Assembly: GCA_964521325.1 (NCBI GenBank) | Contig: CAZFRL010000003.1 | Span: 6,373 to 70,372, forward strand | Reading direction: 5' to 3' | DNA length: 64,000 bases | Source of the DNA: an uncultured Dehalococcoidales bacterium | GTDB lineage: Bacteria > Chloroflexota > Dehalococcoidia > Dehalococcoidales > CAZFRL01 | In this document: positions 10,465-56,212 of the stretch, piece after piece | Layout: each line of letters opens with the position of its first letter | Position numbering within the stretch: the stretch's first letter is position 1 | Notes under the pieces: model-generated | The model's input: the letters and a program-made list of their open reading frames with translations, nothing else | Databases searched by the model: none | Told to the model about the DNA's origin: nothing | Translations under genes and position numbers: made by a program

Positions 10465-10524
10465 TGAACCATTTGGGCAAAGGTTTAGCTAAAGTAGAAC
10501 ATACTGTAAGCAGAAAGGGGCTAA

Positions 10525-12593: not shown

Positions 12594-12684
12594 TACTGGG
12601 CATAATAAAATTAATTGGAGGTAAAGGCAAATACGCATACTGTATATTGGTGCTGAGCGAGTAGGTCTAGTCTGTTTAAGAAAA

Positions 12685-14075: not shown

Positions 14076-14776
14076 GTGAAGAAATTACAATCTTAATCTG
14101 CTGTTACAATGGAGAAAGGTTTCTGAGAAGAGCCCTAGATAGTGCTTTCAATCAAACTCTAAACTCTGATAAATTTGAAATCATTTTTGTTGATGATGGC
14201 TCTAACGATTTAACCCCTGAGATTGCCAGAGAGTATATAAACAGGCCTAACTTTAAATACTATAGCCATGAACAAAACTTAGGACTTGTAGCAAGCTGCA
14301 ATAGAGGCTTAGATTTAGCCAAAGGCACATGGGTGATAAGGTTAGACGCAGATGACGCTTTCTCGCTAGATATATTGAGATACACTTACAAATATGTTGA
14401 GGATAAGGAATGTAATTTTATTTATACTGACCGTAAGGACATCTATTGGGATAAAGGAGAGGAACGCTATGTTGACCTAAGTGAGTTTAACCTCTTTGAA
14501 TTGATTGCCACCGGTATCATGATGCGCAAGCAAATTCTTCTTCAAATCGGTGGTTACCGTAACCTATTTTGGGAAGAATATGACCTATATATACGCTATC
14601 TTCAATGTAGCAATGGGAAAATCATCCACATACCACAACCTCTTTACCACTACTCAGTATACCAGGGAAGCATGACTTCACACTCACAGAAGGTAACTGA
14701 AGGTTGGAACGAATTAATAAAAGAATGGGGAACTGATACTCTAAAACAATATGGCACCCATCCTAGACTATTGTAA
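14072..14776 (+). CDS. glycosyltransferase family 2
   Basis: 234 aa. N-terminal ILICCYNGERFL...FNQT...IIFVDDGSND and a DADD (DxD) motif. Confidence 0.85.
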   Translation: MSEEITILICCYNGERFLRRALDSAFNQTLNSDKFEIIFVDDGSNDLTPEIAREYINRPNFKYYSHEQNLGLVASCNRGLDLAKGTWVIRLDADDAFSLDILRYTYKYVEDKECNFIYTDRKDIYWDKGEERYVDLSEFNLFELIATGIMMRKQILLQIGGYRNLFWEEYDLYIRYLQCSNGKIIHIPQPLYHYSVYQGSMTSHSQKVTEGWNELIKEWGTDTLKQYGTHPRLL

Positions 14777-15591: not shown

Positions 15592-15692
15592 TTTACCTGC
15601 TAAATTATCCAACTCGACAAGAGCAGGAGGACGGGGTGGAGAGAATAGAGCAAAGTGGGCTCAGTTTGAGAAGATCCTGAGGTAATAAGGAT

Positions 15693-16352
15693 GTGAAAGA
15701 CGGCATATCTAAAGATTATCACGATTATGTCTTTAAGGATGGTGAATTTATAGGTGCCTTTGAGGAAATGTACCGGGACGTTGATGACCCTTGGCACCAC
15801 GGGGATGCTACCGCCATCCATTATGATTTAGCTTTATTTCTCTTGAAAAGACATGTAAGTCTACATGGAGGTAGAGCGTTAGATTTGGGGTGTGGCAAGG
15901 GTGCCTTTACCGTTCGGCTAAAGGAAATCTTTCCCAACGCATGTATACTTGGGGTTGACATTGCTCCAACGGCAATAAAGAAGGCTAGCGAGAAATACAA
16001 TCATTTGGGAATCGAGTTTAAAGTCTTTGACGCCGGTAAATACTGGGATATGGCTGATAAGGTAGGGAAGGACTTCCAGCTTGTAGTTATGTCTGACATT
16101 ATGTGGTATATACTCTCCGAATTTGAGAGCGTCGTAAAATACCTTGACAGGATAGTATCTGTGGGGGGATATCTCCTAATTAATCAGACCTTTTATCCGC
16201 TAGACGAACAAAAGTATGGTCGTGAGACTGCTTCATCTGTAGAAGATATGCTGAAGCTAATACCCTATGAGCTGGTGGAAACAATTGAGGTAAAAAGGTC
16301 TGATAGTCAACACGCGATAATGCTATTTCAAGTAGAAACACAAGAGATGTGA
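15693..16352 (+). CDS. class I SAM-dependent methyltransferase
   Basis: 219 aa. GTG start with GAGGT SD. Motif I ALDLGCGKGAF. Confidence 0.8.
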   Translation: MKDGISKDYHDYVFKDGEFIGAFEEMYRDVDDPWHHGDATAIHYDLALFLLKRHVSLHGGRALDLGCGKGAFTVRLKEIFPNACILGVDIAPTAIKKASEKYNHLGIEFKVFDAGKYWDMADKVGKDFQLVVMSDIMWYILSEFESVVKYLDRIVSVGGYLLINQTFYPLDEQKYGRETASSVEDMLKLIPYELVETIEVKRSDSQHAIMLFQVETQEM

Positions 16353-41705: not shown

Positions 41706-42749
41706 CTAGGCCCTCACCCTAGGGCGAAACATGTAGCCCCAAATTCCTCTAATAATTCCGATAGCAACAGCAAAGAAACCAATATAGCCCACCATAAGTA
41801 CTAACACGGCGTCTTTTGTTTTTTGAATGTACTGCCTTACCTTCATTAATTGAACGAGATAAAAAACTAAAGGTGATACTAAAATCACCAATGATAAATA
41901 CAAAAGTGGCGCAATCTTGAGTAGAAATCCTAGTGTTAAGAGGACGACTAGAATCGGCACAAACCCAGCATTAAACAGGTAGCGAATTCCCATCTTAGAA
42001 GGGTGTTTACGATACATGGCTATTCCCCCGCTGGCACGGTGGTAGGCTTGCTTTATATAATCCCTAATACTGGGTCTAGGGTGTACATACACGATAGCCT
42101 CTGGTTTGAACGCTATCCGATAGCCCATCTGTTCCACCCTCCAAAGGATATCGTGGTCTTCTCCCGCTGACAAAGTAGTGTCGAATCCTCTCACTGCCTC
42201 AAATACGCTCTTTCTGAAGGATTGATTTGTCCCCACACTTTTACCACTACGACTCATGCGCCCATAACGGTCATGGATTCTTGTAACCTTTCGTCCACCG
42301 TAGGCACATACATAGAGTTGGGCAATGGTTCTCTGGCGCCAGTTTTTAACATCGTATTCTACATGCGAGCTACCTACTACTGTGCCTACATCTGAATCCT
42401 CATATCCTTCCACTAGGTTCCTTACCCAGCTTTCGCACACCCTATCATCGGCATCTGTGGTCATCAATATTTCACCGATTGCATTTCTAGCCCCGGTGTT
42501 TATTGCTGCGCTAACACCCTTGTTATAGTCATGGCACACTAGCTTGACCGGATAGCGTGATACAATCCCCCTAGAGCGATCACTAGAGCCGTCATCAACC
42601 ACAATTATTTCCATTTTCTCTGAAGGATAATCCTGCTGAAGTAGCGCCTTGATAGCAGTGCTGACTGTTGATTCGGCATTATAGACAGGCAGAATCACAG
42701 ACACAAATGGAAGCTTCTGCTTGTCTTTCCCTTTTCGATTACTTGCCAT
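41706..42749 (-). CDS. glycosyltransferase family 2 with C-terminal TM helices (processive-type architecture)
   Basis: 347 aa. VILPVYNAE, VVDDGSSD and TDADD, with 3 C-terminal hydrophobic helices. Confidence 0.85.
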   Translation of the reverse strand: MASNRKGKDKQKLPFVSVILPVYNAESTVSTAIKALLQQDYPSEKMEIIVVDDGSSDRSRGIVSRYPVKLVCHDYNKGVSAAINTGARNAIGEILMTTDADDRVCESWVRNLVEGYEDSDVGTVVGSSHVEYDVKNWRQRTIAQLYVCAYGGRKVTRIHDRYGRMSRSGKSVGTNQSFRKSVFEAVRGFDTTLSAGEDHDILWRVEQMGYRIAFKPEAIVYVHPRPSIRDYIKQAYHRASGGIAMYRKHPSKMGIRYLFNAGFVPILVVLLTLGFLLKIAPLLYLSLVILVSPLVFYLVQLMKVRQYIQKTKDAVLVLMVGYIGFFAVAIGIIRGIWGYMFRPRVRA

Positions 42750-43866
42750 GTATATTCCCTAATGGTAATTGTCCTTCCCTTCTCCAAGGAATGTCGTTAC
42801 CATTAAACAGCTCATTGGCAACCCTGTGGCAATTACCTTGATAAACAGGATAGTTTCTCTTACATTCTATAAGGGCTGAAAGAAAATCCTCTTTCACTGG
42901 CTTAGCCATGCATCCACACTGATACTTCCTCACTATTTCTGCGATTTCAGGCACATCGGTAGTTACCACCGGCCTGCCACAGACTAGTGACTCTACAGCT
43001 GATAGTGGAATCTCCGGACTATCCCTCAGGGTAAGGAAGGGGGTAACAGTAATGTGAGTTTGGGCATATAACGAGGGGGTATCAGCTACCCGGTTAATAA
43101 CCTCGACTCGGTTTTCCAAATCTAGCTCCTTAATTTTTCTATGCAGAGTTTGATTATACTTTCCTCTCCACAAAAGGTACAACGAGGCTTTATGATGCTG
43201 GCTAAACTCAGCAAAGGATTCTAAGAGTAAGTCCAGCCCTTTTTCGATAAATGGGGCTTCACTTTCACTCTCCATATTGGGAGCACTGGCAAAAAGTATC
43301 CTAAACTCTTTAATATCGGGTGGTTCACTGTATTTGAATCGGCTTGAATCAACCCAGGGATAGATAAGGAATATCTTTCTGGACTCTACTCCCATAACCG
43401 TTAGTTGTTCTTTTATTCGGCGGCTCTGGGCGATTATAGCCGGTAATTTAGGAGCGAATTTACTAGTAAAGGTCTTGACTATGTCATCGTCAAAGCTAAA
43501 GGGGAGGACATTAATAATAGGAATGCACTTTCTTAAATCCAAAAGGGGAAGGAATCCACTGTTGATGCTGGCTGATAAATATATTATATCGAATCTCCTT
43601 TCAAACAGCTTGACAAAGGGGTAAAAGAAGGCACCATTAACTAGCCGGAGGAAAGGATTCGGCTTTTCCGCCCTTAAGAATCGAGTGTTTATGATGAGAT
43701 ATTGCCCCATCTTCTTAAGCGGCAAAAAACCCAGATTATTGCAGGTCAATACCGGAACTTTGAGCTCTTGCGAAAGCAAATACATCTGATTGGCATATGC
43801 TTCATTAAAGTGCGGGGCAAGTGCATCCCCAACTATACCTATTTTCCGATTAAGCTTCGCATTCAT
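42739..43866 (-). CDS. glycosyltransferase, GT-B fold (GT4-like)
   Basis: 375 aa. The C-terminal SAVESLVCGRPVVTTDVPEIAEIV (E-x7-E-like region) is typical of GT4. Confidence 0.75.
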   Translation of the reverse strand: MNAKLNRKIGIVGDALAPHFNEAYANQMYLLSQELKVPVLTCNNLGFLPLKKMGQYLIINTRFLRAEKPNPFLRLVNGAFFYPFVKLFERRFDIIYLSASINSGFLPLLDLRKCIPIINVLPFSFDDDIVKTFTSKFAPKLPAIIAQSRRIKEQLTVMGVESRKIFLIYPWVDSSRFKYSEPPDIKEFRILFASAPNMESESEAPFIEKGLDLLLESFAEFSQHHKASLYLLWRGKYNQTLHRKIKELDLENRVEVINRVADTPSLYAQTHITVTPFLTLRDSPEIPLSAVESLVCGRPVVTTDVPEIAEIVRKYQCGCMAKPVKEDFLSALIECKRNYPVYQGNCHRVANELFNGNDIPWRREGQLPLGNIHGK

Positions 43867-43883
43867 GGTTTTAGGGTTTAAGC

Positions 43884-44981
43884 TCAGCAGATTCTGGCTA
43901 TAAACTGGTAAATTTGGTTGAAGGTATCTGGGCTGTAGGCAGACGGAATTTCTACCTTGTAGGCTGGTATATTCTCCAGACTGCTTCTCAAGCTCTCGGC
44001 TAGTTTCCTTTCCTGGGTAGCGACCAGGCTGTTGGGGAAAACAAAAGAGTAAGCGAGCATGTACCGTAGAAAGGGAGCGGAGCTTATACCAAAACTGGAC
44101 ATACCCATGCCTGAAAAGTCCTCCAGTCTGGCACTAAGTAGCAGGCTGTCTACGATTTGTTCTAAAGAAGCCTGGGGAAGGGGTTCAAAATTAACTCGTT
44201 TATCGGCATGTAATCCGCTGCTCCTAGTGATTAAGAGCAGAGTCTTTAATTTAGCCGATTTAGTCTCGTTCCCTCCAGCTTTTCCATGCTTGTCTCTCAG
44301 ATACCGGGCAATAAATTGAGCCTGTTGGAGAATACCAAAATTTGTCTCGTTAGACAACTGTTTGGTCATAAAGTCAAACATGGCAGGATTCATAGGAAAG
44401 TCCAAAATCTTATTCTGGTGCAGAATCACTCTGTCGTCGCCGAGGCAGGTAAAGCCAGCACAACGCACAAAATCCATACACAGCGAGGTCTTAAAGCCAC
44501 CAGCTCGTCCACTGAGCAAGTATGCCTGATTATCCTTGCTCACGGCTGCTGAATGGGTTAGAAAGTAGCCTTTCAGGCTCAGTTTATGCTCGATGATTCT
44601 GAGTAAGAAGGCTTGAGGAAAGAACAGGGATATGCGAACCAAGCTGAAAGGCTGCATTTGAAATTGCCTACTCGAATGGAGATTGATTATAGTATTTCCC
44701 TGTTCAAACCCTTTTATCTCCACATTCCAGCTTGCCCTCCCCTCAGACTCATGGCAGTAGAAGTAGTTATCCTTGATGTAATATTTATAGTCTACGAGGT
44801 AGCAGTTCTCATTTGAAGGGGTAAACCTGCCTATATTCAGGACTATATCCGGCTTTTCCACTTGCTCAACCTGAAAACAGGAGAACCTCAGGTTTATCAA
44901 GTCCCCGAAGTCAAATTTTCTATCCCTGATTATCTGAAATTTCAGGATGTCATGGATATTGTAGCTTAAAATCTGTTTCAT
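43884..44981 (-). CDS. HPr-kinase-like (HprK C-domain/PEPCK-like P-loop) protein, degenerate Walker A (paralogue B)
   Basis: 365 aa. THSAAVSKDNQAYLLSGRAGGFKTSLCMDFVRCAGFTCLGDDRVIL parallels the HprK/P pattern HG.......G.LI.G.SG.GKSE.AL.L..RGH.LVADD. The GK of the P-loop is FK, and the DD is retained. Confidence 0.6.
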   Translation of the reverse strand: MKQILSYNIHDILKFQIIRDRKFDFGDLINLRFSCFQVEQVEKPDIVLNIGRFTPSNENCYLVDYKYYIKDNYFYCHESEGRASWNVEIKGFEQGNTIINLHSSRQFQMQPFSLVRISLFFPQAFLLRIIEHKLSLKGYFLTHSAAVSKDNQAYLLSGRAGGFKTSLCMDFVRCAGFTCLGDDRVILHQNKILDFPMNPAMFDFMTKQLSNETNFGILQQAQFIARYLRDKHGKAGGNETKSAKLKTLLLITRSSGLHADKRVNFEPLPQASLEQIVDSLLLSARLEDFSGMGMSSFGISSAPFLRYMLAYSFVFPNSLVATQERKLAESLRSSLENIPAYKVEIPSAYSPDTFNQIYQFIARIC

Positions 44982-45030
44982 CTGTTAAGCTTTCCTTGCC
45001 TTCATCGTCAGATATACTGAGTGCCTGGGG

Positions 45031-45228
45031 TCAGGGCGAGATAGCAGCCTCCACACCACAAAGCTGGTCTGTTCCAATTTTCTTGCTTAGCTCCAGGGTA
45101 AAGCTGCCATCACTACAGCCCAGATCCAAGAGTTTAGCGGATTTATCTGGCTCCAGGAGGTCAATGATAACCCTCCTATTTTCAAGGTCAGCGGAGTCTT
45201 GGAGTTTCTTTGACCATTCCCTCAGCAT
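45031..45228 (-). pseudogene. truncated class I (MetW-like) SAM methyltransferase remnant (N-terminal 65 codons only)
   Basis: Encodes ...VIIDLLEPDKSAKLLDLGCSDGSFTLELSKKIGTDQLCGVEAAISP* and stops just after motif I/post-I. Full-length relatives are ~200 aa. None of the three frames of the 49-nt gap before the next gene continues the fold. Confidence 0.6.
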
Positions 45229-46253
45229 TTGCCTGCCAATTTGGTTATCCTGTCCAGGGTTTCATTATCGTATTTCAGCGGCACCTCTACCTGGTAGAAG
45301 GCCTGTGCCACACTTAAGGACTGACTCAGGTTCGCTTCATATCGAGCCCAATGAGTAGCCATATTGCTCCGGGGAAATAGATAAGAGTATTCCATCATAT
45401 ATTTAATGAAGGGAAGGGACTCAAGCTTTTGATTTGATATCACATGAGCGATAAATTCCTCTTTGCTAATCTTTTTCACCTTGAACTCCTTTCGGGGCAG
45501 AAGAAGAAAAACAGAGTGAACATTCGCCTTATCCTGTGTCAAGCCCGGGAATAAAGTTTTCGGGCTGATTTTGGTCCCCATCTGCAGTCCTGTTATTTTT
45601 TGGGAGATTTGATTAACCCTGAAAAGGAGTCTATGCCTTGCTTTCATCCTCCTTCTGATAAAAGGAGTTAGATTAAAATCTACGATGTGTAATGGCAAAG
45701 GAAAACTTAATACAGCATTATTACCCAAGATAACAAAATGGTCTCCAAGAAGCTTGAACCCCCTCTCCACAAGGTTTAAGGCAACGGTAGTCTTGCCAGC
45801 AGCACCTCGTCCAGTGAAGATATATGCTCTATCGTCCTTGACCACTCCAGAGCCATGCACAATAGCGTAGCCTTTTTCATTCAGCTTGAACCATATCAGG
45901 TGATTTATTATGAAGTCAGGGAGAAGCAGCCAGGCAAAGGGATTAGCTGAAACATGGACCTCCATACTGCCACCACTAAATCCAGATATCTTTAGTCGCC
46001 ATTTAGCATATTTATAAGAATCAGAGCAGTAGAGGTAATCTTCCTGTATATAGAACTTATCGTCCAAGATATGGCAATTTGGGCTTTGTGAACTGAATTT
46101 GCCCAAGCAGATAGTAAAATCTGGCTCATCTTTTTGTTTTGACTCAAAATCCCGCAATTCAATGTCCCAGAAAGGAAGAATCCGGCTCAACAAAACAGCA
46201 TTATTCACTACTTTAAAGGTGACAATATCATGGATGCTATAATACTTTTCCAC
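45222..46253 (-). CDS. HPr-kinase-like (HprK C-domain/PEPCK-like P-loop) protein, intact Walker A (paralogue A)
   Basis: 343 aa. VHGSGVVKDDRAYIFTGRGAAGKTTVALNLVERGFKLLGDHFVIL has an intact Walker A (GRGAAGKT). The HprK LVADD position reads LLGDH. Confidence 0.65.
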   Translation of the reverse strand: MEKYYSIHDIVTFKVVNNAVLLSRILPFWDIELRDFESKQKDEPDFTICLGKFSSQSPNCHILDDKFYIQEDYLYCSDSYKYAKWRLKISGFSGGSMEVHVSANPFAWLLLPDFIINHLIWFKLNEKGYAIVHGSGVVKDDRAYIFTGRGAAGKTTVALNLVERGFKLLGDHFVILGNNAVLSFPLPLHIVDFNLTPFIRRRMKARHRLLFRVNQISQKITGLQMGTKISPKTLFPGLTQDKANVHSVFLLLPRKEFKVKKISKEEFIAHVISNQKLESLPFIKYMMEYSYLFPRSNMATHWARYEANLSQSLSVAQAFYQVEVPLKYDNETLDRITKLAGKC

Positions 46254-46261
46254 AACTTTTA

Positions 46262-47287
46262 CTAAATTCCCCGAACTTCTTTTAGCTTCTTAATACAGGC
46301 TTGGGCAAATTTTTCTATGTTGCCGGTTTCAATCAATATCCCATTCTCATCAATCACCTCTGGATGAGGCCCAATATCAAAAGCAACTACTGGCTTCCCA
46401 CAAGCCTGCGCCTCTGCTACTGGAACATTGAAGGTCTCCCAGAGTGAACCCGTAGCGTAGAGATCACACATTGCATAGTAAAGAGGGAGAACCCCATGGG
46501 CGACAAAATTAGCAAATACTACCGAGTCGTCGCTTATACTCTTTAGATCTCGGAAATAATAGGCGTAATCAGGGCGCCCAACAATGACAAGTTTAGCACT
46601 CGGTATCTTCTCCTTAACCAAGTTGAAAGCACGGATTAGGAGATGAACACCCTTTACCGGCCGCAATCCTCCGACAAAAAGGATAGTAGGGTCACTCCCC
46701 AGGCCGTATTTTCTCCTGATTTCATAACCATTGACCCCTAGGTGAAATTTTTCCAAATGTATCTTGTTATATACAACTTCGCTGTCTAATCCAGTGTATT
46801 GCTTGAGTTCCTTCTGCGCGTATTTACTTACTGCAACAGCACTGTCTGCATTCTTTACAGTAAGTCTGGTAAGGAATATCTGCAATTTAATATAGATTCG
46901 CTCGTAGAGGTGTGGGAAGAATTGGGGATCCATAATTCCGTGATACCACACTTTATGCTCAACCTTATAGAATCTCTTGGCGAGGTAAGCCAGCCAAGTC
47001 ATTGGATACTGGTGTGTAATAATTAGATCAAAGCTCCTCAGTTTGGGAAGCCACTGCAAAGTTCGAAATATGTCCAGCGGGAAGACCAATCGATAGATTC
47101 TCTCCCAGGTCGGATTTTTGGGCATACCAATAATAAATACGTTAACATTCCTTGGCCTTATGGCGGCACGCAGAGCAAATATGGCAACGTAGTTGCCCTG
47201 GGCCACTAGTTCTTGAGCCTGAAGCTCAGCTACTCGAGCGCCACCGTCATAGTCGACAAAGTTAGGATACAGTATGGCTATCCTCAT
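46262..47287 (-). CDS. glycosyltransferase family 4 (GT-B)
   Basis: 341 aa. FVGGLRPVKG and ETFNVPVAEAQACGKPVVAFDIGPHPEVI (E-x7-E). Confidence 0.85.
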   Translation of the reverse strand: MRIAILYPNFVDYDGGARVAELQAQELVAQGNYVAIFALRAAIRPRNVNVFIIGMPKNPTWERIYRLVFPLDIFRTLQWLPKLRSFDLIITHQYPMTWLAYLAKRFYKVEHKVWYHGIMDPQFFPHLYERIYIKLQIFLTRLTVKNADSAVAVSKYAQKELKQYTGLDSEVVYNKIHLEKFHLGVNGYEIRRKYGLGSDPTILFVGGLRPVKGVHLLIRAFNLVKEKIPSAKLVIVGRPDYAYYFRDLKSISDDSVVFANFVAHGVLPLYYAMCDLYATGSLWETFNVPVAEAQACGKPVVAFDIGPHPEVIDENGILIETGNIEKFAQACIKKLKEVRGI

Positions 47288-47480
47288 AGTGACCTTATTG
47301 CTCCTCCTTTGTTTACCCCAATAACGTATCCTTTTTCCTTTTGGCCTAGTTATAGAATGATATCAGCCGAAACAAAAGACTAGAATAAGTAAGAGTGTAA
47401 ATACGCAAAACTTTGCTGTTAACAATGTCTTATACTGTATGCACCCAACTATACTAGGTACTGGCATCACACTGATTGCT

Positions 47481-47915
47481 TCAATCTGCTTTAGTATCCC
47501 TTACCTGCCTTAATAGGTTCTCAACAAGCTTTGAGCTTTCTCTTAGTTGACTGCCAACACCATAAACTATCTTGCAGCCAATCTCTTCACATGCCTCTAT
47601 TTCATTTTGTGGCATATTGTCATGGATTCTATCTCCCCCTTTGGCAAATATATCGGGCTTAACCAATTTTAATGTCTCGGCTTGGGTGCCATCGTTGTCC
47701 ACGGTAGCGATAACCTCATCAACACAGCGTAATTCCTTCAGAATTTTCATTCTGTCTTCCAGGGGCATAAAGCAATAACCCTTCTTCCTTATCATATCTT
47801 CGTCATTACTGACCAAAACAATGAGATAATCACCTAGCGTCTTTGCTTTCTGAAAGTGTCGCAAATGACCAATGTGCAAAGGGTCAAAACCACCAGCTAC
47901 AGCTACTCTTACCAT
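47481..47915 (-). CDS. small HIGH-motif nucleotidyltransferase (cytidylyltransferase-like; HldC/RfaE-domain-II or TagD-like)
   Basis: 144 aa. GGFDPLHIGHLRHF..AK.LGDYLIV.VSND and KGGD. Confidence 0.8.
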   Translation of the reverse strand: MVRVAVAGGFDPLHIGHLRHFQKAKTLGDYLIVLVSNDEDMIRKKGYCFMPLEDRMKILKELRCVDEVIATVDNDGTQAETLKLVKPDIFAKGGDRIHDNMPQNEIEACEEIGCKIVYGVGSQLRESSKLVENLLRQVRDTKAD

Positions 47916-47968
47916 CTCTTGCTCCTTAAAATATAATAGGAGACTAAGATCGCTATTCTCATTCTCTA

Positions 47969-48658
47969 TTAGGAGCTCTCCTTAACTGCTGCCATCATCT
48001 CAATGGCTTTATTAGCATCGGTGACAAATTGCCGTACGGTATCACGGGTATATTTATGGTCTACCATTCGAGTAAGGAACGGGGGTGGGATGGTGATGAT
48101 GTGAGCGCCGGCTATTGCCGCCTGAAGGATATCAGCCACCGACCTTATGCTGCCAACGATGATTCGGCTCTTATATTTCCAGCGCTCAAGCCAGTCAACC
48201 GAATTTTTGATAACCTCTGACACATTTCCACCCTCATCACCCACTCTGCCAGCAAAAATACTGATAAAGGTCGCCCCAGCTTTGGCCGCAAAAATAACCT
48301 GTCCTAATGACAGGGCTACTGTTGCATTAACCTTTATCCCTTCGTTTTCAAGTTGTCTGATAACTCCATAGCAGGGGGTGCCATCCTGAGTTGTCTGGGG
48401 AACCTTGATAACAATGTTCGGTGTCCAGGAAGCAAACTTATGTGCCTGAGCTACCATTTCCTCAAGGTCATTGGTGGTAACTTCAACGCTTACCGGGCGA
48501 GGATGAACCAATCTAGCAATCTCTGTCGCTCCCTTCTCTATGTTGTAAACACCATCTTTGAGCATTATGGAAGGATTGGTGGTAACACCATCAGCTATGC
48601 CCATCTCAACCCATCTTTCAATTTCCTTTACATCTGCTGAATCAATGAAAATTTCCAT
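47969..48658 (-). CDS. tal: transaldolase / fructose-6-phosphate aldolase family (short, TalC/Fsa-type)
   Basis: 229 aa. FIDSADVKEI, GVTTNPSI and VIKVP (Schiff-base Lys). Confidence 0.85.
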   Translation of the reverse strand: MEIFIDSADVKEIERWVEMGIADGVTTNPSIMLKDGVYNIEKGATEIARLVHPRPVSVEVTTNDLEEMVAQAHKFASWTPNIVIKVPQTTQDGTPCYGVIRQLENEGIKVNATVALSLGQVIFAAKAGATFISIFAGRVGDEGGNVSEVIKNSVDWLERWKYKSRIIVGSIRSVADILQAAIAGAHIITIPPPFLTRMVDHKYTRDTVRQFVTDANKAIEMMAAVKESS

Positions 48659-48668
48659 ATGTATCCTC

Positions 48669-49250
48669 CTAGGTTAAGATTATTTGCACTGCTTCTAAGA
48701 GATTTGAGGCAATGGCATCGGGTCTTATATTTTCTTCATCCATCAGATGGCAGAGTTCGCACTTCATCCTGCCGAGAAGTATGGTCCTACATCCAGCACC
48801 CTTTCCTGCTTTAACATCAGTAAGCCCATCACCTACCATCCAGGACTGAGATAGATCTATGTTATGCTCCCTTGCCGCTTGAAATAGAAGCCCAGGTTTA
48901 GGCTTTCGACATTCACAGTTCACCCTTAAGCTCTCATCCACTGCCTCAGGGTGATGGAAACAATAGTATTCGCCATCAATGAAAGCCCCCTGTTCAGCGA
49001 GTTGCTCTCTCATTTTCTCTCTGATTTTCTCAAAAGTCTCCCATGAGAGATGCCCTTTTGCTATTCCCGGCTGGTTGGAAACTATGATCACTTTGTACTC
49101 CGTCTCTTTCAGCTTCTTAATAGCCTCACCTGCCCAGCGGAAGAGTTTCAATTGCTCTGCAGTGAACGGCGAATCAATAATCCCGTGCTCCTGGTAGTAG
49201 ACAAGCTCATTTACCACGCCATCCCTGTCAAGAAAAACTGCTCGGTTCAT
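48669..49250 (-). CDS. gmhB: D-glycero-D-manno-heptose 1,7-bisphosphate phosphatase
   Basis: The start is moved to the ATG at 49250 (ATGA overlap with the gmhA stop), giving MNRAVFLDRDGVVNE; the track start is 49277. SNQPGIAKG and the Zn-finger insert C.H...C.CRKPKPG are GmhB hallmarks. Confidence 0.85.
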   Translation of the reverse strand: MNRAVFLDRDGVVNELVYYQEHGIIDSPFTAEQLKLFRWAGEAIKKLKETEYKVIIVSNQPGIAKGHLSWETFEKIREKMREQLAEQGAFIDGEYYCFHHPEAVDESLRVNCECRKPKPGLLFQAAREHNIDLSQSWMVGDGLTDVKAGKGAGCRTILLGRMKCELCHLMDEENIRPDAIASNLLEAVQIILT

Positions 49251-49846
49251 AATTCGGTTATCTTCTGCTTTAGACAACTACAAATAAGGTGCTCTAAAGT
49301 CAGGTGAAAAGACTCCACATAGGGAGTGGAATTTGCCGGAACGACAATACAAGCATCGGCAATTTCCTTCATTGGTCCACCATCAAAGCCGGAAAGGCCA
49401 ATGGTCTTACCCCCGTTCTCCTTGACATACCTCATCGCCTTGATGAGGTTTTGTGACCATAAGTCTGCTTTATCTCGCCCAGCACCACCATGTACGCTGA
49501 TGCAGATAAGGACATCCCCCTCATGGAATTTAGTCTTGAGCTGCTCAATGAAGAGGCTATCAAAGCCTTCATCATTTATTAAGGCAAGCATGAGAGGAAT
49601 GTTATCATTGAGGCATTCGGCTTTGAATCCTCTTTTTCCCTCAGGGGCGGCAGTCTTAAGCAGGTCGCAGGCGAAGTGAGTAGCGGTGGAGGCAGAGCCT
49701 CCGTTTCCACAGGTATAGACCCGATTTCCATTCCTCCAGGCATCAAAGAGGATTCCAATAACCTTATCCGTGTCCTCTACTGATATCTTTCGGGCAACCT
49801 CACTTACCCCAGATAGGTAATCCTCAATGAGTTCCCTGTTTTTCAT
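49247..49846 (-). CDS. gmhA: phosphoheptose (sedoheptulose-7-phosphate) isomerase, SIS domain
   Basis: 199 aa. CGNGGSASTATHFACDL and the SIS-domain layout. Confidence 0.85.
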   Translation of the reverse strand: MKNRELIEDYLSGVSEVARKISVEDTDKVIGILFDAWRNGNRVYTCGNGGSASTATHFACDLLKTAAPEGKRGFKAECLNDNIPLMLALINDEGFDSLFIEQLKTKFHEGDVLICISVHGGAGRDKADLWSQNLIKAMRYVKENGGKTIGLSGFDGGPMKEIADACIVVPANSTPYVESFHLTLEHLICSCLKQKITEL

Positions 49847-49869
49847 AATTCCTCCGGTTGCCTGACTTA

Positions 49870-50856
49870 TTAGGTGTTAGCCAGTATCTTCGCCCCATCA
49901 AAGTCAAAGTGAAACCTTTCCCACCCAAGTCCCATCTTGTGCATAGCCTCTATTACCTTGGACTTATCGCTGTTATTGCAGTAAAACATCAAAAATCCTC
50001 CCCCGCCGGCTCCAATCAGTTTACCTCCTATAGCCCCGTTCTTCCGGGCGACCTCGTAACACTCGTCAACAAAAGGATAGGATATCTTCGAAGAGCGCTT
50101 TTTCTTTGTCTCCCAGTGAACTTGAAGGAATTCGCCAAGGCTATCTACCTCTCCTTTTTCTAGATGCCTTCGTGTTTCCAAGCCTATTTCTTTAATCTGA
50201 TGGAGATTTTGAATCATTGCCGGGTTATCCTTTCTACTCTGCTTGTCATGCTCAGAGAGTATCTCCGAGGCATTCCTCTCCTTACCGGTGAAGAAGAGGA
50301 CAAGATTGCTCTCTAATCGGTCTAGAGCTTCCTCAGATATTCGCAATGGCTCTACGGTAACTCCGCCATTCTTCTCGAAGGTGAGGCAAGTGAGACCACC
50401 GAAAGCAGCCATATACTGGTCTTGTTTACCTATAGGTTCCCCTATGAGGTCTATCTCAATGTGACAGGCTTCCTCAGCGAGCTGCCTTTGGTTTATGAAT
50501 TCACTCTTATAAGCATGAAGGGCATTAAGAAGAGCTACAGTGAAACTGGAGGAGGTGCCTAGTCCGCAGCCAGCGGGCACATCAGCAGCAGAATGAAGCT
50601 CTATTCCCTGTTCAATGCCAAGGAGCTTAAGGGCTGCCTTGAAGATTCGATGCTCTATGTCATCTACATTATCTATTATCTCCATCTTAGAATAGCTAAG
50701 TCGGATACTGTTATAAAATCTCTTGTTAGCCAAGATAGTGCAATATTTGTTAATTGCCCCGGCAATCAGGAAACCGCCATATTTGGAATAATACGCTGCG
50801 AAATCTGTTCCCCCACCTCCCAAGGTTATCCTTGTCGGTGCTCTTGAAAGTATCAT
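49870..50856 (-). CDS. hddA: GHMP-family sugar kinase, D-glycero-alpha-D-manno-heptose 7-phosphate kinase-like
   Basis: 328 aa. SRAPTRITLGGGGTDF, the GHMP motif II PAGCGLGTSSS and the C-terminal GAGGGGF. Confidence 0.75.
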   Translation of the reverse strand: MILSRAPTRITLGGGGTDFAAYYSKYGGFLIAGAINKYCTILANKRFYNSIRLSYSKMEIIDNVDDIEHRIFKAALKLLGIEQGIELHSAADVPAGCGLGTSSSFTVALLNALHAYKSEFINQRQLAEEACHIEIDLIGEPIGKQDQYMAAFGGLTCLTFEKNGGVTVEPLRISEEALDRLESNLVLFFTGKERNASEILSEHDKQSRKDNPAMIQNLHQIKEIGLETRRHLEKGEVDSLGEFLQVHWETKKKRSSKISYPFVDECYEVARKNGAIGGKLIGAGGGGFLMFYCNNSDKSKVIEAMHKMGLGWERFHFDFDGAKILANT

Positions 50857-50887
50857 TTCACCCTCATTCGGTTGTTATCTGACATAG

Positions 50888-51616
50888 CTAGAGCTTGGCT
50901 TTGGCTACGCTTGAGAAAGAACGTGGAGATAGATTACTTTTAGCGAACTCTTCGAAATCTTTAAGTCCCTGAGGTGAGCCTATCTCATAGAAGCGATTCC
51001 TGACCTCATAGGCAAGAAGGTCTCCCGTCTCAATGAGCCGTGAAAACAGTCGCTCCAGAGTATAGTGACCCTGTGGAATCATTTTAAGGATTTCTTTTCT
51101 GAAGATATTCGCTCCATATTCAATATAGACCATACCGGCAGCTCTTTCGCTCTTGCTAAACTTCTTTACTAGCTCTCCTGCTACAACGGTGTTGCTCCTC
51201 TCATATTTGTCGTAGTTTTTATAAACACTCATAAGAGCAAGATTATCCTTAGACTCAAAAAAGGACATGGCAGCTTTAAAGTTCAGGAATAGATAAGAAT
51301 CGCCGTAGAGGGTAAAAAGGATATCTTCGAGCAGGTTCTCAGCGTTTTTAAGCGCTCCAGCGGTACCGAGGAGTCCATCCTCGCGACTATATTTCACACT
51401 CATCCCAAACCTATTTCCGTCTCCAAAATAATTCTCTATTTGTTCCCCAAGATGACCAATACATAAGATGATATCCCTTATTCCGTTTTCCCTAAGAAAG
51501 TCGAGTTGATGTTCAAGGAAAGGCTTACCCAAGATTTGAACCATGGATTTAGGGCGGTCTCGAGCTAAGGCTTCTAGCCTTGTTGCCAGACCTCCAGCCA
51601 GTATTACTACCTGCAT
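50888..51616 (-). CDS. sugar-1-phosphate nucleotidylyltransferase, heptose-1-phosphate guanylyltransferase-like (HddC-like)
   Basis: 242 aa. VILAGGLATRL...PK.MV.I.GKPFLE. Substrate is inferred only from the operon context. Confidence 0.7.
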   Translation of the reverse strand: MQVVILAGGLATRLEALARDRPKSMVQILGKPFLEHQLDFLRENGIRDIILCIGHLGEQIENYFGDGNRFGMSVKYSREDGLLGTAGALKNAENLLEDILFTLYGDSYLFLNFKAAMSFFESKDNLALMSVYKNYDKYERSNTVVAGELVKKFSKSERAAGMVYIEYGANIFRKEILKMIPQGHYTLERLFSRLIETGDLLAYEVRNRFYEIGSPQGLKDFEEFAKSNLSPRSFSSVAKAKL

Positions 51617-51625
51617 CGTTCCTCC

Positions 51626-52576
51626 TCAAGCTTCATCCAAATTCTCTCTCCAGTAATCAAGAAGGTCGGATAGAGTTTTCTCCATAGGTATTTGAGGCTG
51701 CCAGCCGAGACTGAGCAGTTTTGTGTTATCGCCTACATATATCGGGTCATCAAAAGGGCGTAATTTTTCAGGGATTACTCGATAATTAATCTCCCTTCTA
51801 GAAAGGGAGATTAGCTTGGTTAGAATCTCTTCCGTTTTATATGCCTTTCCAGAGCAGAGATTATAAACCTCTCCAGGCTCTCCTTTCTCGGACAAAAGCC
51901 ATAGCGCATTTACTGCATCCCTGCCATCAGTAAAGTCCCTGATTGTATTTAAGCTCCCTACTTCTAAGACCTCTTTTAACCCCTTCTCTATTTCAACTAT
52001 ACCTTTAGCAAAATCGGAGCAGGCGTCAAAGGTTTTCCTCGGGCCTGTCATATTAAAAGGGCGGACACGGATGACCTTCATTCCATAGACCTTCCAGTAA
52101 AAGTAACCAAGCATGTCTTCGCTTACCTTACTAACCGCATACATGCTGGTGGGTCTAAAATCCCCTTCTTCCGTTAAAGGCATTTCATTTTCATCGCAGG
52201 GTCCATATACTGAACTTGAACCCACAATTTCTATTACCGGAGCTATTCCTGTCTCTCTTATGCTATCCAGTAAATAGAATGTCCCTAACACATTGGTCTT
52301 TAGTGTCTCTTCAGGGTTCTCCCAGGACACAGTGACAAAGCTTTGGGCGGCGAGATGAAAGACAATGTCTGGCTTTACCTCGCTGATGATTCTCCTCACT
52401 CCCTGGCTGTCTTTTAAATCGCATTTCAAAATGGTAATCTTGTCTTTTAGATGCTTGATATTCTGTGTATCATCATAAGCCATTCCGTATATCTGAAGGC
52501 CTTTCTCTACTAACATATCCGCCAAGTGAGAACCAATAAAACCTTCGCAGCCGGTTATTAAAATTCTTGTGAACAA
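51626..52576 (-). CDS. GDP-sugar 4,6-dehydratase/4-reductase family SDR (Gmd/Rmd/DmhA-like)
   Basis: 316 aa. ITGCEGFIGSH, HLAAQSFV.VSW..P, NVLGT..LL and MYAVSK. Confidence 0.75.
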   Translation of the reverse strand: MFTRILITGCEGFIGSHLADMLVEKGLQIYGMAYDDTQNIKHLKDKITILKCDLKDSQGVRRIISEVKPDIVFHLAAQSFVTVSWENPEETLKTNVLGTFYLLDSIRETGIAPVIEIVGSSSVYGPCDENEMPLTEEGDFRPTSMYAVSKVSEDMLGYFYWKVYGMKVIRVRPFNMTGPRKTFDACSDFAKGIVEIEKGLKEVLEVGSLNTIRDFTDGRDAVNALWLLSEKGEPGEVYNLCSGKAYKTEEILTKLISLSRREINYRVIPEKLRPFDDPIYVGDNTKLLSLGWQPQIPMEKTLSDLLDYWRENLDEA

Positions 52577-52658
52577 TTATCACCTCTACTAAATAATGGC
52601 ATCAAAGAACTCGCATTTTTAGACTTCTTGTTCCAAATGTCCTTGAACATTACTCGCT

Positions 52659-54095
52659 TTAGAAAAGATGCTTAAAGAAAGTTCTAGCTGATTTAAAAGT
52701 TCTTCTAATCTCCCTGGGCTTAAGTATCATCCTCTTCGCTTTCATCAATATATACCGGGGTCTCAGATAGTACTCACGAATAGCTCGTTCACAAAAGGCA
52801 TTTATCTCCTCTGCTGGTAGGTTAGGTAGATTTAAAAGGCAATTATACCTCGTCTCTTCTATTACCCATTTGGAGTAGTCGGAAGTAGTAAGGTAATTAT
52901 TTCTTTTTGCCCATTCAAAAGCTTCTGTACCCGGATAAACTTGGAGAGGGTAAAATTGCATGGTATCGCAGTTGAGTTCCTTGGCGAGTTTAAGGGTTTT
53001 TCCCATGGTTTCTTTGGTCTCACCCGGGTTACCGACAATAAAGCAGCCATGAACCGTCAAGCCTGCCTTTCTTGAATTTTTGACATATTCACGAATCTGC
53101 TTAACTGTTATCCCCTTGTGCATTAAATCCAGTGAATTCTGGTCTCCACTTTCAAAACCTGTTCCAAGCCCCCTGCATCCCGCCTCCTTCATCGCTAACA
53201 TTGTCTCTAAGTCCAAGTCAGCCCTAACTTGGGCATACCACCTTATTTTGATGTTCCGCGCCAGAATTAATCGACATATCTCTCGTACCCTCTCTCTGTC
53301 AATCGTAAAGGTATCATCATCTAGTTCTATTGCCTTCACCTCAGGCAGCTTCTCAGCAATATATTCAAACTCGTCAACCACATTGGCTGCACTCCGTGGT
53401 CTAAATTGCCGGCTGTGAAAAGTCTGGGGATACAGGCAAAAAGAACATTTATAGGGACAACCTCTCGCTGTCAATATCTGTACCATGGGATAGTCCACAG
53501 CAGCGAAGAAATAGTTTTTGATGTTGAGATGCTTTTTGTAGACCTTGCTGACAAAGGGAAGCTCGTCAAGGTTCTCGATTAAAGGACGAGGTCTATTGTA
53601 AACCACGCTGCTGTTTTCTCTGAAGATAAGTCCATCGACAGCTCTCAAATCACCTTTATCACTCAGGCAGTAAGCAAGGTCACGAATCGTATAATCATAT
53701 TCTCCCTTCGCCACCGCATCTACTTTGTTACTTAATAGAAGGGTTTCTTCAGGTAGAACAGAGGGATGAGTACCGACTAAAGTGATAAAGGCGGAGGGAA
53801 AGGCAGCTTTCAATTTCTCAACTACTTTGATGTCGTTGTAGATGCTGGGGGTACTGGTATCAACCACAATTAAGCGGGGCGAGGATTTTTCTGCCCTCTC
53901 GATGATATTATTAATGGAATAACCCTCTGCGGGGGCATCGATGAGGCTTACATTAAACCCATTCTGGTCAAGAACCCCGGCGGCATATACCAGCCAAAAA
54001 GGGTAGTAAAGTGTGCCCCCGATTGACACCCCAGGGCTTCGGGATGTTCTGGAAAATCTGTTCATGAATGGCGGATTTAGTAATAAGACATTCAT
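52659..54095 (-). CDS. B12-binding-domain radical SAM enzyme (class B rSAM, likely methyltransferase-type)
   Basis: 478 aa. An N-terminal cobalamin-binding-like Rossmann region, then TARGCPYKCSFCLYP (CxxxCxxC) and a TIM-barrel rSAM core. Confidence 0.8.
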   Translation of the reverse strand: MNVLLLNPPFMNRFSRTSRSPGVSIGGTLYYPFWLVYAAGVLDQNGFNVSLIDAPAEGYSINNIIERAEKSSPRLIVVDTSTPSIYNDIKVVEKLKAAFPSAFITLVGTHPSVLPEETLLLSNKVDAVAKGEYDYTIRDLAYCLSDKGDLRAVDGLIFRENSSVVYNRPRPLIENLDELPFVSKVYKKHLNIKNYFFAAVDYPMVQILTARGCPYKCSFCLYPQTFHSRQFRPRSAANVVDEFEYIAEKLPEVKAIELDDDTFTIDRERVREICRLILARNIKIRWYAQVRADLDLETMLAMKEAGCRGLGTGFESGDQNSLDLMHKGITVKQIREYVKNSRKAGLTVHGCFIVGNPGETKETMGKTLKLAKELNCDTMQFYPLQVYPGTEAFEWAKRNNYLTTSDYSKWVIEETRYNCLLNLPNLPAEEINAFCERAIREYYLRPRYILMKAKRMILKPREIRRTFKSARTFFKHLF

Positions 54096-54115
54096 ACCAA
54101 CTCTTCTTCCATAGC

Positions 54116-55075
54116 CTACTTAATGCCGGTTTTATGTGGAAGTATTATTCCTTTCCAAAACCCGAGAGTGTATAAAGTATGCTCGACAATATAGACAAAC
54201 GGTATCGAAACTAAATACCTAATATCTCTTTCTCGAATTATGAACTTCAAAGCCATAGTTACTAATAGAAGACAATATAAGCCCAGTAGAGATAGAAAGG
54301 CCCAACGGGTAAACAGCAGTGATAGAACAACCAAAGGGATAACCAATGGCGGGATAACTTGTAAGTCCCAGGCTCGAATCACCCCTCTCTCTTTTCCATA
54401 CCGATACATCTTTTTGGCGAATTTTCCCACGGTCCAGCCATGTTGGTGCAAAACTATTGCCTCTGGGGTATAGAGCAATTTTCCTTTCTTATAAAGCTTC
54501 TTATTCAGTTCCAAATCCTCTCCACCAGGTAACTTAATATTGAACCCACCTACCTTCAATATGTCCTGCTTACGATATACACTATTAAATCCACCAATGC
54601 TTCTTAAAAAGCGTTTGTTCTTGAAGAACCTTCCTTGTGGTGTTTTAGCACCTCCCAGAAATGTACCCATGGAAAGGTTGATTGATTTTTCCCACAGGCT
54701 GTCTCCTGTATTTTTTGTTGCCCCACCAACACCAATAATACCCGTATCAAATTCTTTAATTAAATTTCTTAGCCATTCTTTATCTGGTATACAGTCAGCA
54801 TCGGTAAAAGCTATATACTCCCCTTTCGCCCTTTCTGTTCCAATCTGACGAGCGCAAGCTATGGATTGAGCACCCTCGTAGAATATTTTCACTAGGAAGT
54901 TCCTCGCCTTTCCCACCGTCTCATCGGTGGAATGCCCATCAACGATGATGACCTCATAAGGCTTTAGTGATTGAGAAAAGACCGCTTTTAGGCATTGCTC
55001 TATCTTAGCAGCTTCATTCCGCGCCGGTATTACTACAGATATCTTGGGTCTACTCACTCCTCTTACTTCCCCCAA
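54116..55075 (-). CDS. glycosyltransferase family 2 with C-terminal TM helices
   Basis: 319 aa. VVIPARNEA, IIVDGHSTDET and TDADC. The TTG start overlaps the upstream gene by 26 nt, so the exact start is uncertain. Confidence 0.8.
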   Translation of the reverse strand: MGEVRGVSRPKISVVIPARNEAAKIEQCLKAVFSQSLKPYEVIIVDGHSTDETVGKARNFLVKIFYEGAQSIACARQIGTERAKGEYIAFTDADCIPDKEWLRNLIKEFDTGIIGVGGATKNTGDSLWEKSINLSMGTFLGGAKTPQGRFFKNKRFLRSIGGFNSVYRKQDILKVGGFNIKLPGGEDLELNKKLYKKGKLLYTPEAIVLHQHGWTVGKFAKKMYRYGKERGVIRAWDLQVIPPLVIPLVVLSLLFTRWAFLSLLGLYCLLLVTMALKFIIRERDIRYLVSIPFVYIVEHTLYTLGFWKGIILPHKTGIK

Positions 55076-55793
55076 ATAAGCAATGCTTAAGGCGAATTCT
55101 GACTACCGAGAGGGCCACACCGAGTCCATGCTTGATTGCCTTTAAGTTAAGGGTTGATGAGACATAGGAACAGGAGATGACAACTTCTCTGATAATAGCC
55201 CCTCTTCTTCTGGCTTCCTCCAGACTCTCAATGCTAGCACTCATTCCCCTCTCAGAAAGGGGAAGATTTGTAAATGCCTTTCTGTTGTAAGCCCTAAAGC
55301 CACTTTGAGCATCGGATACCTTTGTCTTAGAGCCAAGGTTAAACAGCAAGGTAATTACACTGATGCCGAATTTGCGATAGCTTGGCATAATAGCCGATTG
55401 AATTGGTTGGAGAAAACGGGAGCCAATGACAACGTCTGCTTCCCCGTTGAGGATAGGAGTTACTAACTTTGGTATTTCATCCGGGTTGTGTTGTCCATCA
55501 CCATCGATGATAACCAAAATATCAGCGGCATTTGCCTTCACCGTCTCGAAACACGACTTGATGGCTTCTCCATAGCCCCTATTTGTGCCATGATTTATTA
55601 CCTGGGCTCCGGCTGCTCTTGCTGCTTCGGCTGAGCCATCGTATGAACCATCATCTATCACGATGACATGGTCAACATAGTTCTTGGCCGTAGAAACCAC
55701 GTCACCAATAAAGTACTCGGTATTAAAACAAGGTATGGCGGCTACGACTTTAGGTCTAATTTTCTGAGAAGGTTGAGACAACTGCGGCATCAC
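55050..55793 (-). CDS. GT2 polyprenyl-phosphate glycosyltransferase (DPM1/GtrB-like)
   Basis: 247 aa. AAIPCFNTE, VIVIDDGSYDGS, NRGYGEA, IDGDGQH.P..IP and VIGSRF. Confidence 0.8.
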   Translation of the reverse strand: MMPQLSQPSQKIRPKVVAAIPCFNTEYFIGDVVSTAKNYVDHVIVIDDGSYDGSAEAARAAGAQVINHGTNRGYGEAIKSCFETVKANAADILVIIDGDGQHNPDEIPKLVTPILNGEADVVIGSRFLQPIQSAIMPSYRKFGISVITLLFNLGSKTKVSDAQSGFRAYNRKAFTNLPLSERGMSASIESLEEARRRGAIIREVVISCSYVSSTLNLKAIKHGLGVALSVVRIRLKHCLFGGSKRSE

Positions 55794-55914: not shown

Positions 55915-56112
55915 CTATTCTTCCCCACCTTTGATTCCCACCTCGTTGAACAACCTCCCCAGCTCACGACGGGCAAGACGGGTAGGCTTACCCCCGCTTT
56001 TCTCCCAGCGTTGCACTGTAGACAGACTGACGCATATCTCCCGAGCCAAATCTTCCTGTGTCCAACCCTTCTTTTTTCGCAGTTCCTTTACCTTTTCCTT
56101 AATTTGTTCCAT
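55915..56112 (-). CDS. XRE-family helix-turn-helix transcriptional regulator (65 aa)
   Basis: LRKKKGWTQEDLAREICVSLSTVQRWE is a canonical HTH_3/XRE motif. Confidence 0.85.
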   Translation of the reverse strand: MEQIKEKVKELRKKKGWTQEDLAREICVSLSTVQRWEKSGGKPTRLARRELGRLFNEVGIKGGEE

Positions 56113-56165
56113 TATAGAAGACCTGGGCTACATTAGGTAAGGTTTTACCTTGGGTATTATTAAGG

Positions 56166-56194
56166 ATTATAACACGTAATATGCCAGATGTCAA
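56166..56194 (-). promoter_or_regulatory. near-consensus sigma70 promoter of the XRE gene
   Basis: On the minus strand: TTGACA (56194-56189), 17-nt spacer, TGtTATAAT (extended -10, TATAAT = 56171-56166), ~55 nt upstream of the ATG at 56112. Confidence 0.65.
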
Positions 56195-56212
56195 TAGGTA
56201 TGCCAGTTGGCA
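56182..56212. promoter_or_regulatory. two operator candidates: TGCCAgaTGtCA (56182-56193) and perfect TGCCAgtTGGCA (56201-56212)
   Basis: The perfect palindrome ends 6 nt upstream (minus-strand sense) of the XRE promoter -35. The one-mismatch copy overlaps the -35 and spacer. Centre-to-centre distance is 19 nt. Confidence 0.6.

Follow-up and report, generated by a model that had tools for sequence, protein, structure and literature searches.

Does a 65-amino acid XRE-type regulator, encoded at the head of a run of glycan genes in a Dehalococcoidales bacterium, control its own promoter and, through the same operator, glycan promoters elsewhere in the locus? The question is raised by a palindrome that recurs at three promoters of the window (the whole stretch of DNA that was analyzed, 64 kb). 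Marine sediments and aquifers harbor an abundance of Dehalococcoidia, hardly any of which have been cultured, and to our knowledge essentially nothing is known about transcription regulation in this class. The envelope of cultured Dehalococcoidia has an S-layer and no peptidoglycan, which makes surface glycans the main interface of such cells with phages and surfaces. Literature searches returned no description of the XRE family or of its operator. Based on the comparison presented here, it is fairly probable that a dimer of the 65-amino acid protein recognizes the operator TGMCA-N2-TGKCA and exerts a negative autoregulation that also reaches the glycan genes. The outcome is a candidate regulator–operator pair that can be synthesized (one short protein and 40-bp oligonucleotides), a predicted consensus promoter for Dehalococcoidia (TTGACA-N17-TATAAT) and a rule to locate the heads of glycan loci in metagenome-assembled genomes (MAGs).

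Organization of the Glycan Locus

The XRE gene (HTH_3 type, MEQIKEKVKELRKKKGWTQEDLAREICVSLSTVQRWEKSGGKPTRLARRELGRLFNEVGIKGGEE; 55915..56112, minus strand; translation, Pfam and AlphaFold) has a YdjM gene upstream and a GT2 gene downstream. It is followed by a minus-strand glycan run (41706..55793; ORF map and Pfam) that contains two GT2 genes and genes for a B12 radical SAM protein, an epimerase, an NTP-transferase and others. The 121-nt gap between the XRE gene and this run contains no terminator-like site on the minus strand, and the two are probably co-transcribed, at least in part. On the plus strand, the first gene behind promoter p7461 encodes an NAD-dependent epimerase/dehydratase (7461..8387; Pfam) and is followed by genes for a UDP-sugar dehydrogenase and then a cytidylyltransferase (Pfam). 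Promoter p10525 precedes a nonulosonic-acid-type pathway (10525..16352, plus strand; Pfam) with genes for a DegT aminotransferase, an epimerase/dehydratase, a formyltransferase, a PIG-L deacetylase, a GT2, NeuB and a methyltransferase; a second NeuB, fused to a cytidylyltransferase, is encoded further along the window. The window also encodes DUF1616, HdrA-like and PMT-like genes. The HdrA-like genes form a pair (57093-59048 and 59139-62519, plus strand) in which the N- and C-terminal thirds are almost the same; on visual inspection the second gene appears to contain an inserted oxidoreductase-like middle, and it carries a short internal duplication (YELDSSQ[C/Y]RQPVD). The first 1.7 kb of the window look ORF-free but are not non-coding DNA; they appear to be the 5' part of a minus-strand gene (1-1650, threonyl-tRNA synthetase-like by eye) that leaves the window edge.

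In the related loci that were examined, a glycan cluster begins with the XRE gene. Among 66 loci, the gene next after XRE is a GT2 gene in 18 cases, an NTP-transferase in 7-8, an epimerase/dehydratase in 6 and PGM/PMM in 4, with DegT, DUF1616 and B12 radical SAM genes as further cases, and no toxin family was found among the 66 downstream genes. Since the regulator usually heads a glycan operon, its autoregulation would amount to regulation of glycan genes too. The neighbors of the sites vary among the loci (YdjM, TetR, an NrpR-like protein, a cyclase). In L027 (7900-8000) and L048 (2970-3020) the XRE gene is divergent from a gene of 346 amino acids (MSFEAQSVERKEL...GARVIAHRMKDYGFELGERAVRYH) that is NrpR-like by reading alone, and the shared gap contains dyads facing both ways. 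ORFs of ~138 amino acids located 320-340 nt behind some of the homologs were rejected as spurious-looking, a reading of the sequence indicating an apparent convergent gene on the opposite strand.

Tandem Sites at Three Promoters

Six sites were identified in the window, arranged as three tandem pairs in three intergenic regions, with site starts 19 bp apart at the XRE promoter, p7461 and p10525. In each pair, site 1 reads TGMCA-N2-TGKCA and is followed 6 nt downstream by TTGACA, and the TGACA of this -35 hexamer doubles as the left half-site of site 2. At the XRE promoter (TGCCAACTGGCA-TACCTA-TTGACA-TCTGGCAT...TG-T-TATAAT, minus strand), site 1 is a perfect palindrome (TGCCAACTGGCA, 56201..56212) that ends 6 nt upstream of the -35 box, and site 2 (TGACATCTGGCA, 56182..56193) covers the last 5 nt of the -35 box and the first 7 nt of the spacer. 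The core promoter (56166..56194) consists of TTGACA (56189-56194), a 17-nt spacer and a TG-extended TATAAT (56166-56171), and matches the sigma-70 consensus at 12 out of 12 positions; sigma-70 logic is applicable because the organism is a Dehalococcoidia bacterium.

The two glycan promoters, both on the plus strand, each combine a perfect -35 box with a weak -10 box. At p7461 (TGCCACCTGGCA-AGTTAC-TTGACA-ATTAGCA), site 1 (TGCCACCTGGCA, 7307..7318) is located 6 nt upstream of the -35 box of a TTGACA-N17-GAAAAT core promoter (7325..7353) and site 2 is degenerate with two mismatches (TGACAATTAGCA, 7326-7337). At p10525 (TGCCAGTTGACA-GGACAC-TTGACA-GCTGGCA), the right half of site 1 (TGCCAGTTGACA, 10414..10425) carries an A that is rare across the family, and a perfect site 2 (TGACAGCTGGCA, 10433-10444) overlaps the -35 box of a TTGACA-N17-CAAAAT core promoter (10432..10460). 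The initial annotation had quoted the sequences and coordinates of all three promoters correctly, but its arrangement of one site per promoter, with an extra copy at the XRE promoter only, stood in part: the sites are present, whereas pairs occur at all three promoters and the second sites TGACAGCTGGCA and TGACAATTAGCA had been overlooked. A second promoter-like site (TTGCTA-N16-TATAAT, 7262-7289, plus strand) is found just upstream of p7461 site 1; if it is used, the p7461 palindrome would lie just downstream of its start, in a roadblock position.

The pattern TGCCANNTGGCA with up to one mismatch has six matches in the window (1.94 expected), five of which are located inside the three intergenic gaps of a window that is 8.5% intergenic. 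The search against shuffled sequence that had been suggested at the outset gave four matches of the family-derived pattern TGMCANNTGKCA in the window (0.29 expected), a number that none of 100 shuffles reached. A 31-bp composite (TGMCANNTGNCA-N6-TTGACA-NN-TNGCA) matches exactly the three promoters and nothing else in the window (0.00 expected), which bears out the shared promoter geometry. Isolated half-sites at 39737, 47464 and 42741, listed in the initial annotation, are attributable to chance: the window contains TGNCA 320 times, with no intergenic enrichment when the modules are left out. A short nhmmer profile of the module found the XRE promoter (E=1.6e-4) and was too weak for p7461 and p10525; pattern matching yielded more information.

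Paralogy between p7461 and p10525 extends past the sites over ~100 bp, so that the two represent roughly one independent glycan-promoter occurrence in the window, while the XRE promoter has only the dyads and the -35 box in common with them. The likeness of the two glycan promoters past the operator (7325-7415 and 10432-10505, TTGACAnnTnGCAATTAATnTTGnAAAATATnGTnGAA ... GACATACTG) appears to be a promoter–leader duplication within the locus, with a leader unlike the XRE-type leader.

Footprint over the Promoters of XRE Homologs

A total of 70 distinct homolog promoters were anchored on the -35 box. They are near the consensus TTGACA-N17/18-TATAAT and 36 out of 70 are perfect (12/12). Positions +9 to +14, counted from the start of the -35 box, are also conserved (T9 in 54/70, G10 in 65/70, furthermore C12, C13 and A14), and these bases, which no generic sigma-70 promoter requires, define site 2. 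Site 2 is recognizable with up to one mismatch in 30 of the 70 promoters; in most family members its right half reads TGTCCA or TGNGCA and exceeds a half of site 1 by one base, so that site 2 may be weak or differently read. The upstream TGMCA-N2-TGKCA is perfect in 24/70 promoters and has at most one mismatch in 39/70, compared with 0.24% and 0.9% of random windows in the same loci; 31 promoters are without an upstream palindrome at this threshold.

A looser scan (TGNCA-N2-TGNCA) places the palindrome starts, relative to the first T of the -35 box, at -18/-19 (18 promoters, the class to which the XRE promoter of the window belongs), at -28 to -30 (15 promoters) and at -51/-52 (6 promoters). 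Steps of this size (~11 and 22 bp) leave site 1 on the same face of the helix relative to site 2, with the classes following clades, so that the phasing counts are not independent events. The palindrome had been described as always ending 6 nt before the -35 box, which holds in the window but not in the family (6-7, 16-18 and 39 nt), and conservation of this spacing in relatives had been named as a test; the spacing varies and is helically phased. In L001, L002, L006 and L007, which are strain variants of the window's XRE promoter within one species, site 1 is separated from the -35 box by a tandem duplication of 11 bp (CTGGCATACCT) that shifts the full palindrome by one helical turn, from -18 to -29, and leaves a half-site at the former position. 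Some homologs appear to have two promoter–leader modules in tandem upstream of XRE; these were read directly in L009 (9700-10000) and L045 (9090-9375), and are suggested in L035 (1354-1510) and L088 (6970-7118) by a promoter 128-146 nt from the start codon.

Among 43 upstream sites, the middle base of the left half is A or C and never G, that of the right half is G or T and never C, and the two halves vary independently. This pattern indicates a true dyad in which each half contains one position that is not read, and it explains why the copies in the window that had been called imperfect differ at exactly that base. The earlier observation that they deviate at the third base of the right half was correct as to the base, which is a position of family-wide degeneracy; given this degeneracy the 56182-56193 copy, formerly a one-mismatch copy, is not imperfect at all and only the right-half A of 10414-10425 is unusual. 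The distance of 7 bp between half-site centers is unusual for HTH dimers, although it recurs in C-protein boxes (PMC2175313).

Distribution of the Putative Operator in Related Loci

A total of 42 perfect dyads were found in 1.02 Mb of related loci. Most of them (32 out of 42) precede an XRE gene by no more than 220 bp, and the remaining 10 are all in ORF-free DNA; none lies in a long ORF, and the commonness in coding DNA that the initial annotation had considered was not seen. No element other than the XRE protein invariably accompanies the sites. The autoregulation and co-regulation proposed in the initial annotation are well supported by comparison, through the 39 out of 70 homolog promoters with an upstream palindrome and the 32 out of 42 sites at XRE genes.

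Targets other than XRE include a GT2 promoter in L008 with the full tandem module, a B12 radical-SAM gene in L056 and, in the composite scan, a module that precedes an L045 NTP-transferase gene. A site in the divergent gap between DUF1616 and epimerase genes of L033 is the counterpart of window positions 7132-7460: the L033 epimerase is 67% identical to that of the window, and site 1-N6-TTGACA-nTTAG is kept while the flanks have diverged. The site 1-N6-TTGACA block is also kept at an epimerase ortholog in L131 (61.5% identity). The TTAG after the -35 box is common to p7461 and L033, and site 2 is degenerate in both. No cross-genome footprint was obtained for p10525, for which the sole close DegT ortholog (L008, 75% identity) is operon-internal and without a promoter. 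A few sites precede signaling genes, namely a PAS-histidine kinase (L009) and response regulators (L057, L209).

A metagenome-wide scan with the composite motif returned at least a handful of relevant loci among the matches listed and does not represent an unbiased regulon; the matches listed are dominated by an unrelated AT-rich repeat family (TGACACGTGGCA-N6-TTGACACGTGGCA). The AT-rich element, highly repeated and found in other metagenomes among L093-L212 (e.g., L097, L098, L104 and L149; ..TGACACGTGGCActagcaTTGACACGTGGCAcaattgtgacTTGACACGTGGAC..tttttgaaattaaaaaa) and sometimes twice per contig, fits the composite pattern by chance through its own G-box-like repeats.

A Conserved 5' Leader

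An alignment of the XRE homologs revealed a conserved leader downstream of the -10 box (consensus ..GTGCTACaCAAGGTAAAACCTTGCTTAATgTAGCTTgTGGAGGTTATAATG; also written ..CAAGGTAAAACCTTGCTTAATGTAGC.. or AAGGTAAAACCTTGCTTAATGTAGC, with segment AAGGTAAAACCTT). In the window it extends between the -10 box and the start codon (56125..56160, minus strand, ..ATACCCAAGGTAAAACCTTACCTAATGTAGCC..; nhmmer E=3e-5 with the family leader profile), and with the same profile the block was not recognizable at p7461 or p10525. It is also present ahead of glycan operons with GT2 (L008, 12847-12886; L202, 827-863), epimerase (L033, 4078-4112, minus strand) and NTP-transferase genes (L013, 3213-3253, minus strand), the last of these without a canonical operator. 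The block contains the dyad AAGGT-N3-ACCTT, and its distances to the -10 box and to the ATG are only partly fixed on either side. An RNA hairpin was rejected, since RNAalifold gave no pairs and the covariation of a two-helix model was no better than in shuffles; Rfam gave no match to the leader at the gathering score or at E<=1. The leader could act at the DNA level, as a dyad bound by another protein, or as a signal in single-stranded RNA.

The XRE Protein and Its Family

The XRE protein matches Pfam HTH_3 (PF01381) with E=3.7e-12 (46.5 bits, cut-off 23), and no other curated family reached its cut-off. The AlphaFold model (pLDDT 85.5) consists of four helices, the fourth of which is followed by the C-terminus (residue 65). 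Homologs form at least 1250 clusters (75-87% identity); in a collection of genomes at the species level they were found at 80 loci, every one of them in a Dehalococcoidia MAG. No variation is seen in the recognition helix (VSLSTVQRWE) across the family, so that one operator sequence is expected family-wide. Several genomes contain two or three paralogs at different loci, and the paralog sets on separate contigs (L028/L036/L064, L057/L058, L055/L066, L034/L075 and L060/L070) have an identical recognition helix, which implies cross-talk between loci. Contigs related to the window encode Cpn60/Cpn10 (GroEL/GroES), histidine kinases and an ECF sigma factor. An archaeal origin of the window, first suggested by its DUF1616, HdrA-like and PMT-like genes and under which reasoning on -35 and -10 boxes would not apply, was rejected in view of the GroEL/GroES and ECF sigma factor genes and of the 80 Dehalococcoidia loci.

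The best sequence relatives are HipB antitoxins (E=2e-4, over the HTH) and RstR, and the Foldseek neighbors (EDF1/MBF1, C.Esp1396I, 434 Cro, SinR-N, DdrO-N and C.AhdI) are all of the Cro/C1 type with no preference among them. No close relative was found in the viral contigs searched and none in the plasmids searched with tblastn, which indicates that the family is neither phage- nor plasmid-borne. A role as antitoxin or in defence was rejected, as there is no toxin neighbor and the PADLOC and NCBIfam matches are weak and generic.

Probable Autorepression and Alternative Mechanisms

From the arrangement of the sites we infer binding by the XRE protein, its cooperativity and the sign of regulation. 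One dimer would occupy the strong upstream site 1 and a second dimer would bind cooperatively to the weaker site 2, whose left half is the TGACA of the -35 box; occupancy of site 2 would block sigma-70 region 4. The maximal XRE promoter, and with it the glycan genes behind, would be kept low by negative feedback, and the same site pair at p7461 and p10525 would place the epimerase/dehydrogenase and nonulosonic-acid blocks under the XRE protein. Extra modules, as in the window, may thus recruit further operons. The protein has no sensor domain, and release would occur through dilution, turnover or a further partner. Autorepression would explain why a maximal promoter is tolerated before a regulator gene, why site 1 moves by whole helical turns only and why nearly all sites are at XRE promoters. 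The initial annotation had divided the two functions, with activation at the glycan promoters and repression at the regulator's own; a perfect site 2 covers the -35 box of p10525 as well, so that this division is not supported by the architecture, which does not separate activation from repression. The glycan promoters, with their weak -10 boxes, would be equally compatible with activation.

The alternative that survives best, possible though on balance rather unlikely, is a switch like that of restriction-modification controller proteins, in which the site 1 dimer would activate at low concentration by touching RNA polymerase and cooperative binding to site 2 would repress at higher concentration. 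Activation would weigh most at the glycan promoters with their weak -10 boxes, and the switch would produce a pulse or set-point of glycan expression. The layout resembles that of C.PvuII (two dyads, 7-bp half-site centers, a proximal dyad that shares bases with the -35 box and a small XRE fold; PMC2175313), and C.Esp1396I and C.AhdI are structural neighbors (TM ~0.7). The -10 hexamers GAAAAT and CAAAAT of p7461 and p10525 point in the same direction, and the degenerate site 2 at p7461 and L033, both with TTAG, suggests that site 1 may act alone there. The phasing of site 1 fits a face-dependent contact with RNA polymerase as well as it fits cooperativity. However, half of the XRE promoters match the consensus at 12/12 with an extended TG and need no activator, site 2 of p10525 is perfect, the center of site 1 near -47.5 is non-canonical for an activator, and the inter-dyad spacing (7, 17-19 and 40 bp) differs from the fixed 4-nt spacer of the C-box.

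It is quite improbable that the sites are read by another factor, such as a global regulator, or reflect a lineage-specific feature of RNA polymerase or sigma, with the XRE gene merely located behind them. Such a reading draws on the indirect assignment of the sites to the XRE protein, on a site 2 consensus unlike that of site 1 and on the few sites before non-glycan genes (the L009 PAS-histidine kinase and the L057 and L209 response regulators). The concentration of perfect sites at XRE promoters (32/42), however, is a signature of autoregulation and not of a global regulon, no other regulator is conserved beside the sites, and the strict left/right asymmetry of the middle bases argues for a homodimeric DNA-binding protein and not for RNA polymerase.

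The faintest prospect is that the likeness is purely historical (duplicated promoter segments without operator function, as the ~100 bp shared by p7461 and p10525 might suggest) or that TGGCA-N6-TTGA is a sigma-54 -24/-12 element, as the spacing of TGGCA-N6-TTG would allow, but the first reading is opposed by an XRE promoter that shares only dyads and -35 box with the glycan promoters and is largely refuted by dyads kept across genomes with diverged flanks, and the second (-24 TGGCA/-12 TTGC) was rejected because the -12 element reads TTGA without the obligatory GC, the distance from TGGCA to the -35 box varies family-wide and a perfect sigma-70 promoter is present.

A broader reading appears unlikely: a Dehalococcoidia-wide control layer for surface-glycan loci, in which the two or three paralogs per genome are summed and regulation would be controller-like (activator, then repressor) and coupled to the leader element AAGGTAAAACCTTGCTTAATGTAGC. 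If so, each glycan locus would read the summed regulator concentration with cross-locus feedback, and the leader element might represent a novel signal, either bound by a protein or acting in antitermination, that serves glycan transcripts of great length.

Comparison with Known Systems

The XRE protein shares the HTH_3 fold with Cro/CI-type repressors and HipB-type antitoxins and, like them, would be autoregulated through dyad operators overlapping the promoter but, unlike phage Cro/CI and the HipB, MqsA and HigA-like antitoxins, it has no toxin gene or prophage context. In Bacillus subtilis the eps operon is repressed by SinR, a protein of the XRE type whose binding sites are short repeated motifs. 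The N-terminal domain of SinR alone aligns with the XRE protein, which at 65 amino acids has no C-terminal domain for oligomerization or for binding of an antagonist (SinI). EpsR of the Lactococcus eps cluster is the first gene of a polysaccharide cluster with a conserved head and a variable tail (PMC6458302), and the XRE gene at the head of glycan clusters is analogous in position (PMC6458302). In contrast to both EpsR and SinR, the XRE family is restricted to Dehalococcoidia and its operator sequence is unrelated to theirs.

In its logic, the XRE module is closest to the controller proteins of restriction-modification systems. In C.PvuII, the distal dyad activates and the proximal dyad, which overlaps the -35 box, represses; the C-box reads GACT-N3-AGTC-N4-GACT-N3-AGTC with a conserved GT in the spacer (PMC2175313). 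Similar to C.PvuII, C.AhdI and C.Esp1396I, the regulator is an XRE-fold protein of ~8-9 kDa encoded by the first gene of the unit that it would control, and as for the C proteins there are two tandem dyads with half-site centers 7 bp apart, the proximal one overlapping the -35 box (PMC2175313). Unlike in the C-protein systems, the downstream genes in the window and in the 66 loci encode glycan enzymes and no restriction or methylase functions, the operator is TGMCA-N2-TGKCA with an inter-dyad spacer that is variable and phased instead of fixed at 4 nt, and the promoters are of consensus strength instead of activator-dependent; furthermore, there is no family match between C proteins and the XRE protein at the sequence level. 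By these features, and with no relative on plasmids, the XRE protein belongs neither to the C proteins nor with EpsR. The cooperative dimer–dimer feedback of the C proteins (PMC2175313) would have its counterpart in the XRE protein, and the proposed XRE autoregulator is in this respect conventional, a self-regulating switch of a known type that involves no new regulatory principle.
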